From Candidatus Zixiibacteriota bacterium (GTDB lineage Bacteria; Zixibacteria; MSB-5A5; GN15; FEB-12): 64,000 nt of DNA. Of this stretch, positions 53,930 to 55,734 are shown piece by piece. Position numbers and translations under genes: made by a program. Within the stretch, counting starts at the first letter, position 1. Every line of letters begins with the position of its first letter. The notes below the pieces were generated by a model. The model had not been told where the DNA came from. It was given only the letters and a program-made list of their open reading frames with translations, and searched no databases. The stretch spans positions 3,533,169 through 3,597,168 of the forward strand of contig CP070674.1 in NCBI GenBank assembly GCA_020351995.1, written 5' to 3'.

Positions 53930-54508
53930 ATGGACAGCGATAAGAACCTGTTCTGGAAGCTCGTTGAGAGTGAGCACCTCAAGACGCGGGCCCTTTGCCG
54001 CAAGCTGGCGGGCAGCCGCGAAGACGGTGACGACCTCTATCACGATGCCCTGCTGGCGGCACGAAAGGGATTCAGCGGTCTGCGAGATCCTAAGGCGTTT
54101 CGACCCTGGTTTTACCGGATCGTCGTCAATGTCTTCAAACGCCGCTTGAGACGACCGTGGTACCGACTCCTGCTTCCAATCACTTCCGAAGTGGCAGAGG
54201 CTGCCGGCAGTCAAGACCCGGGGGCGAGTTATGTCGCCCGTCGCCACCTCGAGCGCGCTTTCAGGGCAATATCGCCCGAGGACCAGGCCGTTGTGATCAT
54301 GTTCGAGCTGGACGGCCGGTCAACCTCCGAGATCGCGCGCATACTGGGTAAGTCGGAGGGGTCCATCAGAGTCCGGTTACACCGGGCGCGCGGAAGAATG
54401 AGAGAAGCTCTGGCCAGGTTTCAATCGACTTCCAAAAAGGAATCAGTAACAGAACCTGCATTGACAAAGGAGAGCCTATGCGCTGTCACAAAGCCAAACA
54501 AAGACTGA
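53930..54508 (+). CDS. ECF-family RNA polymerase sigma-70 factor
   Basis: Region 2 is DDLYHDALLAARKGF...FRPWFYRIVVN. Region 4 is the HTH LDGRSTSEIARILGKSEGSIRVRLHRAR. The start is trimmed to the ATG at 53930. Confidence 0.85.
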   Translation: MDSDKNLFWKLVESEHLKTRALCRKLAGSREDGDDLYHDALLAARKGFSGLRDPKAFRPWFYRIVVNVFKRRLRRPWYRLLLPITSEVAEAAGSQDPGASYVARRHLERAFRAISPEDQAVVIMFELDGRSTSEIARILGKSEGSIRVRLHRARGRMREALARFQSTSKKESVTEPALTKESLCAVTKPNKD

Positions 54509-55734
54509 CGCAGTTGGTGTCGGCCCGGTCAGTGATGGACGTCGATGACGAACTCAGAGAGCATCTGAAGACCTGCAGTCTCTGCGCTGGTCAGTACCGG
54601 GCGGCGCTTGACCTGCGGTCCTCCCTAGAGCGGGCCTCGGGGTCCGATGATACCGAAACGGTATCGCTGGCGGCGCTCAGGACCCATATCGAGGCGCAGG
54701 TAGAGTCGGCTTCAAAAGAAGCGGAAAGGATGAGTGTTATGGCTAGAGTTGTCGATCAGATGAAGCGCCCCAGATACAGCCTTCCGGCCGCGGCCGTAGC
54801 CGCCGCGGTACTGCTGGCCGTTATATTGCCTCTAAGGTTTGGCAATCTGGTCGAATACGAAGTAGCCTTCGCCAATGTCGACCCGGCGCTGGCGCAGGAT
54901 GGTACCACACTTCGAATGATTCTCGTTGAGATGGAAATCCCCGATGTCGACATTACCATCGGTCCCTGCGACGAAGAGTGCGACCTGGTGATATCGAGCA
55001 TCAAGACGGAGGAGGAGCTCGGCAAGCTCATTGCCGTCTTTGAGGAGGGTGCTAAGGCGACCGTCGTATCGGCGAACAAGGTGGAGATCAATGAAGGCTA
55101 CCGTACGGTCTCCAGCATGACCGAGGATCAGCTGGAACATATGCGGAAGTACAATATCCGGATCATGGAGATGGTCCGGGTAGTGATGCTGGTCGCTATC
55201 GAAGCTTCCCGGCAGGCCGAGGGAGAATTTAAGGGAGAGGCGGTGGTAATTCTCGAGAAATCTGATGGTGTGTACCGCGTGAAATCCTACGAACCGGGAG
55301 ACAATTCCCTTTGGATAAAGATCGTCATGCCGGGCGGGGGTAACGCCCACCGCTTCAGAAACGATGATGGCAGCGCCGAGAAATTTCTGGAAGGCTACGG
55401 GATTGACCCGTCGTTTCTGCGCGATGAGGGCGCCGCCGAAGCAATTGCCAAAGGGACCGATGGCTTGCCTGCGGAATTCTCACTCGGGCAGAACTATCCC
55501 AACCCCTTCAACCCGACCACAGATATCAGCTTCAGTCTGCCGCAGGCCACGCACGTGAAGCTGGAAGTATTCAACATCATGGGACAGAGAGTATCGACCC
55601 TTGTTGATCGCCAGATGGCGGCTGGCACGCATACTGTCACCTTTGATGGCGGTCAGGTTGCCAGCGGCACCTATTTGTATCGCCTGCAGGCCGGCGACAA
55701 AGTGGAAACGAAGAAGATGTCCTTGGTTAAATAG
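54478..55734 (+). CDS. Anti-sigma factor (zf-HC2, single TM) whose extracytoplasmic part ends in a T9SS C-terminal sorting domain
   Basis: It overlaps the sigma gene by 31 nt. Features are an N-terminal H-x3-C-x2-C motif ([10 protein letters not shown]), a TM helix ([16 protein letters not shown]), a ~230-aa outer domain, and the tail [10 protein letters not shown]...GTYLYRL...KKMSLVK. Confidence 0.75.
   Translation: [418 protein letters not shown]

Follow-up and report, generated by a model that had tools for sequence, protein, structure and literature searches.

A putative transmembrane anti-sigma factor with a type IX secretion sorting domain in Zixibacteria

Introduction

The anti-sigma factor FlgM, the partner of sigma-28, is a small soluble protein that leaves the cytoplasm intact through the flagellar type III apparatus, in a checkpoint of assembly. 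RsiW, the anti-sigma factor of sigma-W in Bacillus subtilis, has an ectodomain without a secretion signal, its trigger being the site-1 protease PrsW, and anti-sigma factors of the FecR type have a different domain organisation and a TonB-dependent transporter as partner. Type IX secretion system (T9SS) regulation has been elucidated chiefly for the PorXY-SigP route of a single genus, and to our knowledge all known T9SS substrates are soluble periplasmic intermediates that arise from Sec precursors with cleavable signal peptides. Here, we describe a locus in a 64,000-nucleotide stretch of a Candidatus Zixiibacteriota genome (GenBank contig CP070674.1, positions 3,533,169 to 3,597,168; the whole stretch is called the window below), in which a gene for an extracytoplasmic function (ECF) sigma factor overlaps the gene for a putative transmembrane anti-sigma factor that ends in a T9SS C-terminal sorting domain (CTD).

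Sorting domains of this kind bind the periplasmic immunoglobulin (Ig)-like domains of the inner-membrane-anchored protein PorM through motif D, and also bind PorN, according to two-hybrid and co-immunoprecipitation experiments (bioRxiv 10.1101/483123). The CTD protein PorA feeds into PorXY-SigP ECF signalling (PMC7712824). In membrane anti-sigma factors of the RsgI type the ectodomain is pulled off, which leaves a stub that is open to a site-2 protease (PMC10556640); for the RsgI/SigI pair, a force that pulls at the distal module and so uncovers this stub has been proposed as the trigger (PMC10556640, PMC10328401). In the literature we found no paper on an anti-sigma factor that bears a T9SS CTD, nor on a T9SS in Zixibacteria. 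The parts of the protein described here are known, namely the ECF sigma factor, the ZAS-type transmembrane anti-sigma factor and the type A CTD, while their combination is undescribed in the literature that we found and has been missed by annotation pipelines.

Each of the described systems resembles the locus in some respects and departs from it in others. Like RsiW, the window protein has a cytoplasmic N-terminal domain that begins M-x-C and holds H-x3-C-x2-C at the same spacing, appears to be a single-pass membrane protein with its N-terminus inside, and is encoded directly downstream of an ECF sigma gene. Unlike RsiW, it has an ectodomain in which a ferredoxin-like module precedes a variable domain and a T9SS CTD, and the similarity to RsiW is marginal, over about 45 residues. 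With FlgM it may share a logic, without homology, in which a secretion machine's export signal is borne by the anti-sigma factor and sigma activity would report the state of that machine; unlike FlgM it is membrane-anchored, so only its periplasmic part could be engaged, and release of the sigma factor would need intramembrane proteolysis. The layout of the ectodomain, with a compact alpha/beta domain beside the membrane, then a variable stretch and a binding module at the far end, recalls RsgI/SigI (PMC10556640, PMC10328401), but here a C-x3-C hairpin replaces the N-P scissile turn, the cytoplasmic domain is ZAS-type, and the distal module is a secretion signal and not the carbohydrate-binding or disordered region found in RsgI. 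The PorA-PorXY-SigP route of Porphyromonas gingivalis is a precedent for a CTD protein that influences the activity of an ECF sigma factor (PMC7712824). PorA, however, is a surface protein in its own right, has a normal signal peptide and acts through a two-component system, and no anti-sigma factor has been identified for SigP, whereas here a direct fusion joins the CTD to the anti-sigma factor. Finally, the proposed conversation between the periplasmic C-terminal part of an inner-membrane anti-sigma factor and an outer-membrane machine has a parallel in FecR/FecI/FecA; the FecR family is absent from the Pfam matches of the window protein (E ≤ 0.1) and of the 95 long family members introduced below (E ≤ 0.01).

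The C-terminal sorting domain

The anti-sigma gene lies at 54478..55734 on the plus strand and, as the original prediction from the DNA sequence had stated, it encodes 418 amino acids (aa) and overlaps an ECF sigma gene, the overlap being 31 nucleotides (nt). Its 3' end (55483..55734, plus strand; aa 336-418 and the stop codon) encodes a type A T9SS sorting domain, of which aa 340-414 match Por_Secre_tail (PF18962) with 37.9 bits (cut-off 27) and TIGR04183 with 43.6 bits (cut-off 23). The Por_Secre_tail-type domain, which the original prediction had described as complete, thus passes both curated cut-offs. In an AlphaFold2 (AF2) model of the full-length protein, with a mean predicted local distance difference test score (pLDDT) of 84.6, seven predicted strands over aa 336-416 form a beta-sandwich with pLDDT values of about 82-97. 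Foldseek finds this fold similar to the CTD of RemZ in the SprA-PorV translocon (8gl8_D), with a target-normalised template modelling (TM) score of 0.63, a root-mean-square deviation (rmsd) of 3.9 Å over 86 columns and an E-value of 1.5e-3.

Conservation points in the same direction. The CTD is the most conserved region of the protein family, its mean pairwise identity being 59%, while the periplasmic module reaches 49% and the cytoplasmic domain 33%, and positions N339, P341-N345, T348, G369, G383, W389, G397 and Y399 are conserved in at least 90% of the members. Three blocks are common to the anti-sigma CTD and the cargo CTDs of the genome: an N-terminal NYPNPFNP, a central SGxYxYRL and a terminal KKMxLxK. 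The window anti-sigma CTD is 55-75% (mean 66.5%) identical to the eight cargo CTDs in the same 64 kb, as against a mean of 56.7% and a maximum of 61.4% to the anti-sigma CTDs of non-orthologous genomes, a comparison that comes from one genome (one other locus had a single cargo CTD). A higher similarity to the cargo of its own genome is expected if the same receptor recognises the anti-sigma CTD. The fusion has been retained over a deeply diverged clade, in which the N-terminal half is only about 30% identical. To judge from these sequence comparisons, the CTD is under the same constraints as cargo CTDs and the fusion is old, and the periplasmic end of the anti-sigma factor is a genuine T9SS type A sorting domain.

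The same region also matches the Pfam family FlgD_ig, at 24.8 bits (cut-off 27), and 89 of the 95 long members match it at E ≤ 0.01. This raises the alternative that the domain is a generic Ig-like beta-sandwich of the FlgD_ig type, used for binding or stability in an ordinary ECF system for envelope signals and having no link to the T9SS. A lack of T9SS core components among the recognised proteins of the 64-kb window would agree with such a role, as would the short subfamily of the protein, which functions without the domain, and the circumstance that known T9SS substrates require a cleavable signal peptide while the anti-sigma factor has none. We nevertheless regard this explanation as improbable, since the domain stands at the extreme C-terminus in 85 of 89 members, keeps the NYPNPFNP, SGxYxYRL and KKMxLxK blocks in common with cargo CTDs, and is both the most conserved region and nearer to the local cargo CTDs than to foreign CTDs of its own family. 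Of a module that only had to bind, and no longer to serve secretion, one would expect divergence from the cargo consensus.

Family and distribution

Relatives were collected by an exhaustive HMMER search with a CTD-less query (aa 1-335), which yielded 225 cluster representatives with E ≤ 1e-3, of which 134 have E ≤ 1e-10. Matching extends over aa 1 to about 195 and takes in the cytoplasmic domain, the transmembrane helix and the juxtamembrane module. An exhaustive search was required because a word-indexed homologue search is nearly blind to this family, returning 3 and then 10 matches. Two close orthologs are 78% and 74% identical to the non-CTD query and 82% and 79% identical over the full length, and both end in a CTD; one of them, in the closed genome CP070777.1, keeps the overlapping sigma gene in the company of different flanking genes.

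The 152 family sequences that were retrieved comprise 95 long proteins (>300 aa) and 57 short ones. CTD-bearing anti-sigma proteins proved to be common, as 89 of the 95 long relatives end in a CTD (89 of the 152 representatives), which is flush with the C-terminus in 85 of the 89, and Pfam assigns Por_Secre_tail to 85 of the 95 at E ≤ 0.01. Together with the 59% identity and the fold match to 8gl8_D, this means that the tail is not a degenerate remnant unique to one genome, a possibility that the original prediction had raised against itself. A scan of GTDB species-representative genomes added 29 further loci, so that 31 loci were examined, and 27 of the 30 complete genomic anti-sigma copies have the CTD. 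Because it recurs in this proportion of the representatives and of the genomic copies, the architecture is well beyond chance. These comparisons point to a class of transmembrane anti-sigma factors with a secretion signal as the putative sensory end, the fusion being conserved in a large Zixibacteria family.

The 57 short proteins (about 195-270 aa) end after the juxtamembrane module. In a neighbour-joining tree 53 of 63 short forms fall into one pure clade, which identifies them as a paralogous subfamily and not as scattered truncations, and one genome carries a long and a short form side by side (loci L010 and L027). None of the database labels of family members reads anti-sigma factor; the names in use are 'hypothetical', 'FlgD Ig-like domain', 'T9SS C-terminal target domain-containing protein' and 'T9SS type A sorting domain-containing protein'. 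A re-annotation as anti-sigma factors is possible for at least 225 protein clusters that are now labelled as T9SS-sorting, FlgD Ig-like or hypothetical.

The label Zixibacteria is attached to most of the loci, Ignavibacteria or Ignavibacteriales to six and Calditrichaeota to one. Between the 'Ignavibacteria' copies and copies labelled Zixibacteria the identity is 50-91%, and the sequences of the two interleave; for this reason we treat only Zixibacteria as secure, and a distribution over several phyla, which the labels would give at face value, is not claimed. In two pairs (L018 and L019, L011 and L016) members labelled Ignavibacteria or Ignavibacteriales are 77-91% identical to members labelled Zixibacteria, which suggests taxonomic mislabelling of some series of metagenome-assembled genomes; recent transfer seems less likely.

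Cytoplasmic domain and membrane topology

The cytoplasmic anti-sigma domain (54478..54762, plus strand; aa 1-95) has the ZAS-type arrangement C3-x25-H29-x3-C33-x2-C36. The H-x3-C-x2-C motif that had been noticed in the sequence is thus present as H29, C33 and C36, with C3 as an additional upstream ligand-type position; all four residues are conserved in at least 90% of 150 representatives and are invariant in an alignment of 32 sequences. The AF2 model places helices at aa 3-15, 24-32 and 34-54 and a long helix at aa 64-95, with pLDDT values of about 86-96 for aa 1-50. When the family profile is compared with the Protein Data Bank (PDB), RsiW is the best match (5wuq_C, E 0.04), and RsrA (E 0.62) and ChrR (E 0.81) are in the top seven, none of them significant alone. 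Weak NCBIfam matches fall below their cut-offs, namely NF052375 (E 7e-4, 19.6 bits, cut-off 100) and TIGR03988, which is RsrA (E 3e-3, 17.5 bits, cut-off 62.5). The assignment is made because the motif, these weak NCBIfam and PDB matches and the invariant pairing with an ECF sigma gene agree. Motif, topology and synteny are those of an anti-sigma factor, while the thresholds of curated hidden Markov models are not reached, and we consider the protein a putative ZAS-type (zinc-binding) class I anti-sigma factor for which sigma inhibition is predicted.

A single hydrophobic segment, at aa 101-119 (54778..54834, plus strand; Kyte-Doolittle value 2.35), forms the predicted transmembrane signal-anchor, with an RPR, conserved in the family, towards the cytoplasm and a nearly invariant Pro118-Phe where it reaches the periplasm. 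It is the only such segment in the protein, in line with the single helix of the original prediction, and the AF2 model has the helix at aa 98-116. Four K/R residues lie in the preceding 15 aa, whereas the following 15 aa hold no K/R and three D/E, and this charge bias predicts an orientation with the N-terminus inside and the C-terminus outside. The family behaves in the same way: 188 of 194 proteins have exactly one transmembrane segment (median start aa 101), and in 186 of these 188 K/R residues are more frequent on the N-terminal than on the C-terminal side (means 4.09 and 0.98). The C-terminal part is therefore predicted to be periplasmic and not cytoplasmic.

The segment does not look like a cleavable signal peptide either, given that a conserved cytoplasmic domain of about 100 aa precedes it and that no small -3/-1 pair, as expected at a signal-peptidase site, follows it in the family consensus. 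That consensus reads P(99%)-F-[KSR]-[YF]-[DEQN]-[RQK]-T-[VI]-G-Y-E (150 representatives; P118 99%, F119 79%). The cleavable N-terminal Sec signal peptide of a T9SS substrate is thus missing, and the protein should not be filed as ordinary T9SS cargo. A hydrophobic segment resembling a signal peptide lies in about the first 60 residues of the open reading frame (ORF) in each of the window's eight other CTD proteins, which makes the anti-sigma factor look like a deliberate exception. Conversely, a single pass with the N-terminus in and the C-terminus out, combined with a helix-destabilising residue in the membrane (P118), is what is found in RseA- and RsiW-type proteins.

An internal start at M85, which would turn the transmembrane segment into a signal peptide, was considered and rejected. 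The 84 codons upstream of it hold those conserved residues that are the most diagnostic, and an AGG directly abuts this ATG without spacing, whereas a conserved Shine-Dalgarno sequence (29 of 29 loci) precedes the ATG at 54478.

Periplasmic region

Without the CTD the ectodomain has about 216 aa (aa 120-335), close to the 230 aa or so that had been estimated. It begins with a conserved juxtamembrane module (54841..55116, plus strand; aa 122-213) with a ferredoxin-like beta-alpha-beta-beta-alpha-beta(-beta) order, modelled by AF2 over aa 124-213 as beta-alpha-beta-beta-alpha-beta-beta. Modelled alone, the module reaches a pLDDT of 86.7 and a predicted TM-score of 0.75. Its hallmarks are a GYEVA motif, in which G126-Y127 is nearly invariant, and a nearly invariant pair C164-x3-C168 that flanks the beta2-beta3 turn. 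Among PDB folds the matches are generic ferredoxin-like ones, with the P4 domain of SecDF (2rrn; TM-scores 0.64 and 0.66) as the best, followed by MgtC-C, ACT, PII and acylphosphatase; none reaches E ≤ 0.001, and no Pfam family covers the module in the window protein or in the 95 long members.

The motif D-C164-x-x-T-C168 (54967-54981), a three-residue beta-turn flanked by the Cys pair, is present in both the CTD-bearing and the short subfamily. From the model, the two cysteines are most simply read as a cross-strand disulfide, or as a redox or metal site. Its presence in both subfamilies indicates that the motif is probably central to what the core sensor detects, which may be redox state or a metal. 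The beta-alpha-beta-beta-alpha-beta order with a conserved motif in the beta2-beta3 turn also brought up autoproteolysis of the SEA/SEAL kind. However, the top 50 PDB fold matches include no SEA, SEAL or RsgI entry, and in place of a scissile N-P (as in RsgI) or G-S (as in SEA) the turn carries D-C164-x-x-T-C168, so that the idea was set aside and the model leaves it at most a distant possibility.

Downstream follow a variable alpha/beta middle region (55117..55428, plus strand; aa 214-317) and a flexible acidic linker (55429..55482, plus strand; aa 318-335). AF2 models aa 216-315 as helical with beta structure, with block-mean pLDDT values of about 61-92, and gives pLDDT values below 50 for aa 318-330. 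The middle region is weakly conserved, and the distance from the end of the transmembrane segment to the start of the CTD ranges in the family from 172 to 398 aa (median 264). The 25 aa before the CTD are enriched in E, A, D, G and S across the family. Matches of the full-length model to MHC-like structures (rmsd about 19-20 Å) were dismissed as an artefact of a multi-domain query.

These features bear on two further explanations. One is that the ectodomain is a secreted product, in which a cut near the membrane frees a CTD-bearing fragment that the T9SS exports, as disposal or as an extracellular signal or receptor like PorA, so that the CTD would act only after signalling. A detached fragment would fit a T9SS substrate well, being periplasmic and folded with a terminal CTD after a flexible acidic linker; a middle region that varies in length and sequence is what surface exposure leads one to expect, and PorA offers a precedent for CTD proteins in ECF-linked signalling (PMC7712824). 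The module shows no autoproteolytic signature, though, with neither SEA nor SEAL in the top 50 fold matches and no N-P hairpin like that of RsgI (PMC10556640), and mere disposal would not account for the CTD as the most conserved part, which leads us to consider this quite unlikely to be the role of the domain. The other explanation, which seems highly improbable to us, is a static tether across the envelope, with the CTD held in PorV/SprA and the N-terminus in the inner membrane, that reports envelope spacing or integrity or positions the sigma factor. An ectodomain length that varies more than two-fold would be odd for a molecular ruler, a compact folded ectodomain may not span the periplasm, and CTDs normally bind transiently and are cleaved after transport. 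The architecture of an N-in anchor with a domain directed to the outer membrane, the 172-398 residues and flexible linker between the two, and the contacts that FecR-type anti-sigma factors make with outer-membrane partners nevertheless accord with it.

Operon structure and promoter

The sigma gene (53930..54508, plus strand) encodes a group IV, ECF-type member of the sigma-70 family of 192 aa when counted from the ATG, and an alternative TTG start lies at 53921. Sigma orthologs begin MDxxRxLFWKL at the ATG that corresponds to 53930. The protein matches Sigma70_r2 (38.7 bits), Sigma70_r4_2 (50.6 bits) and TIGR02937 (ECF; 72.2 bits) above their cut-offs, and there is no assignment at equivalog level among its Pfam and NCBIfam matches. 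An ECF sigma ORF stands immediately upstream of the anti-sigma gene in all 31 loci (phmmer E-values 1e-42 to 1e-107), with an overlap of exactly 31 nt in 27 of them. The Shine-Dalgarno sequence of the anti-sigma gene, AAGGAG at 54467..54472 (plus strand), lies within the 3' end of the sigma gene, and a (G/A)AGGA core about 7-8 nt before the anti-sigma ATG was found in 29 of 29 loci. Translation of the anti-sigma gene is thereby predicted to be coupled to that of the sigma gene through this internal site.

A candidate autoregulatory ECF-type promoter (53891..53923, plus strand) occupies a conserved position upstream of the sigma gene. The bipartite motif tGTAACC(TTT) - 18 nt - GTGTCT(A/T)A occurs there in every one of the 31 loci, the GTCT core of its -10 element lying 12-14 nt upstream of the sigma ATG. 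In the window the -35 element is TGTAAC (53892-53897), and the -10-like element GGGACTCT ends at 53919, 11 nt before the ATG; here and in ortholog L001, ACTCT replaces GTGTCT in the -10 region. The window promoter scores 13.3 bits against a position weight matrix, a value that shuffled sequence also reaches and that is not distinctive alone, and the call is made because of the position conserved across loci. With only 12-14 nt between the -10 element and the ATG, the transcript should have no leader or almost none; in front of the sigma gene no Shine-Dalgarno sequence can be seen, whereas the internal one of the second gene is strong, and the operon mRNA is probably leaderless or nearly so. 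Taken together, the promoter and the overlap imply an autoregulated, translationally coupled two-gene operon. The conserved promoter may serve as a starting point for regulon prediction in Zixibacteria genomes.

Elsewhere in the family the loci do not share the cargo genes by which the pair is flanked in the window. Just upstream of the operon, 53071-53670 encodes a predicted multi-pass membrane protein of 199 aa with a weak match to DUF5658, which is not kept beside the sigma/anti-sigma pair in other genomes.

Possible modes of action

The original prediction had called a sorting domain on an inner-membrane-anchored protein topologically paradoxical. The arrangement is indeed unusual, but the word is somewhat overstated in view of the binding of CTDs to inner-membrane-anchored PorM (bioRxiv 10.1101/483123), since an inner-membrane-tethered CTD could in this way meet the T9SS without reaching the outer membrane. 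Our preferred explanation, held tentatively and at slightly less than even confidence, is that the T9SS engages the tethered CTD and in doing so controls intramembrane proteolysis of the anti-sigma factor. The CTD would act as a pseudo-substrate of the T9SS, first at the level of periplasmic PorM/GldM and PorN, and possibly also at the PorV/SprA translocon. As the inner-membrane anchor makes intact export impossible, engagement would tug at the ectodomain, unfold it or take it off. What is left, a shortened stub, could then become a substrate of a site-2 intramembrane protease of the RseP/RasP type, and Pro118 in the transmembrane segment would fit the need for a helix-destabilising residue in such cleavage. 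The released sigma factor would boost its own operon and a further regulon. The logic would be that of a secretion checkpoint, as in FlgM export, carried out by regulated intramembrane proteolysis as in RsiW, RseA and RsgI. In the orthologous closed genome CP070777.1 a Peptidase_M50 gene with a PDZ domain (site-2 type) adjoins dxr. More specifically, the T9SS could itself provide the 'site-1' step, its machinery driven by the proton-motive force stripping or unfolding the ectodomain and so licensing intramembrane cleavage and sigma release; this stronger form we find rather doubtful.

Several results weigh against T9SS control of the anti-sigma factor, or against the identities on which it builds. 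Among the proteins of the 64-kb window none was recognised as a T9SS core component (SprA/Sov, PorV, GldK-N/PorK-N or PorU), the only related finds being cargo and two C25 peptidases. The existence of a short paralogous subfamily that works without a CTD indicates that the domain is dispensable for basic anti-sigma function. Pfam zf-HC2 (PF13490) does not match the window protein at E ≤ 0.1, and only 6 of the 95 long members match it (best E 3.4e-4). The greater similarity to local cargo CTDs comes, as said, from a single genome. The regulon was scanned for in the window with a 33-column position weight matrix built from 29 promoters and with the core pattern GTAAC-N17-19-STCT: apart from the promoter of the operon itself, all hits were at a frequency that shuffled sequence also gives, and the core pattern gave 3 matches with 1.58 expected. 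All-against-all clustering of the ORFs at 32 loci found only sigma, anti-sigma and antisense shadow ORFs common to more than four loci, so that no other neighbour is conserved.

The main competitor is a sensor based on competition, in which the docked CTD, bound to a PorM-, PorN- or PorV-like protein or to itself, protects the ectodomain until unsecreted cargo CTDs displace it, whereupon a site-1 cut and intramembrane proteolysis would switch the sigma factor on. This resembles the logic by which RseA and DegS sense unassembled outer-membrane proteins. All the structural evidence for the preferred explanation applies to it equally, and nothing separates it from the pulling model; the 66.5% identity to the CTDs of the genome's own cargo is exactly what a competitive sensor needs, the genome abounds in CTD cargo, with C25 and S8 proteases and cytochromes among the eight other CTD proteins of the 64 kb, and binding of CTDs to PorM and PorN has been published (bioRxiv 10.1101/483123). 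Given that neighbour clustering links no site-1 protease candidate to the operon and that the promoter scans of the window detect no chaperone or protease regulon, we judge it unlikely.

If the CTD is functional in the anti-sigma factor, the pair would be a direct line from the secretion apparatus to transcription and the state of a secretion system would be a new class of ECF input. A sigma-dependent reporter would then also offer a simple genetic handle on CTD recognition, including recognition at the inner-membrane-proximal level of PorM. Were the T9SS itself to perform the site-1 step, the family would represent a FlgM-like checkpoint for the type IX system that is conserved across a candidate phylum, and the first case of a T9SS signal acting on an inner-membrane protein without a cleavable signal peptide.

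Other genes in the window

Including the anti-sigma factor, the window encodes nine CTD proteins; the cargo comprises C25 and S8 peptidases, a multihaem cytochrome, a di-haem peroxidase of the MauG/CCP type and others, whose CTDs are near-identical. Both the cytochrome c7-like multihaem protein (48322-50391) and the di-haem MauG/CCP-family peroxidase (56383-57927) end in T9SS CTDs, which suggests that in this organism redox proteins reach the cell surface through the T9SS, possibly to serve extracellular electron transfer or defence against peroxide. The two C25 (gingipain/PorU-family) peptidases, at 9162-11822 and 40678-42906, have a propeptide and a CTD. They match the PorU model with their catalytic domain only, at 102 and 98 bits (cut-off 420), and such sub-threshold matches would fit either divergent PorU-like sortases or ordinary secreted C25 proteases.

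At 17442-24221 a beta-helix/NosD-like giant of 2042 aa is followed by a 203-aa protein, which consists mostly of a FlgD_ig/CTD-like domain, and then by a TPR protein. The CTD-like domain of the 203-aa protein is sub-threshold for TIGR04183 and does not lie at the extreme C-terminus. A gene for a HAMP and SpoIIE/PP2C phosphatase (26223-27824) overlaps one for a fusion of STAS (anti-anti-sigma) and HATPase_c_2 (anti-sigma kinase) domains (27787-28578); 26223-28578 is a partner-switching module, in which the fusion of antagonist and kinase is unusual. Type I dockerin domains occur in the products of both 36954-38279 (plus strand) and 38365-40146 (minus strand), one of which also has FG-GAP repeats, and these sequences hint at surface assemblies of the cohesin-dockerin type alongside the T9SS cargo.

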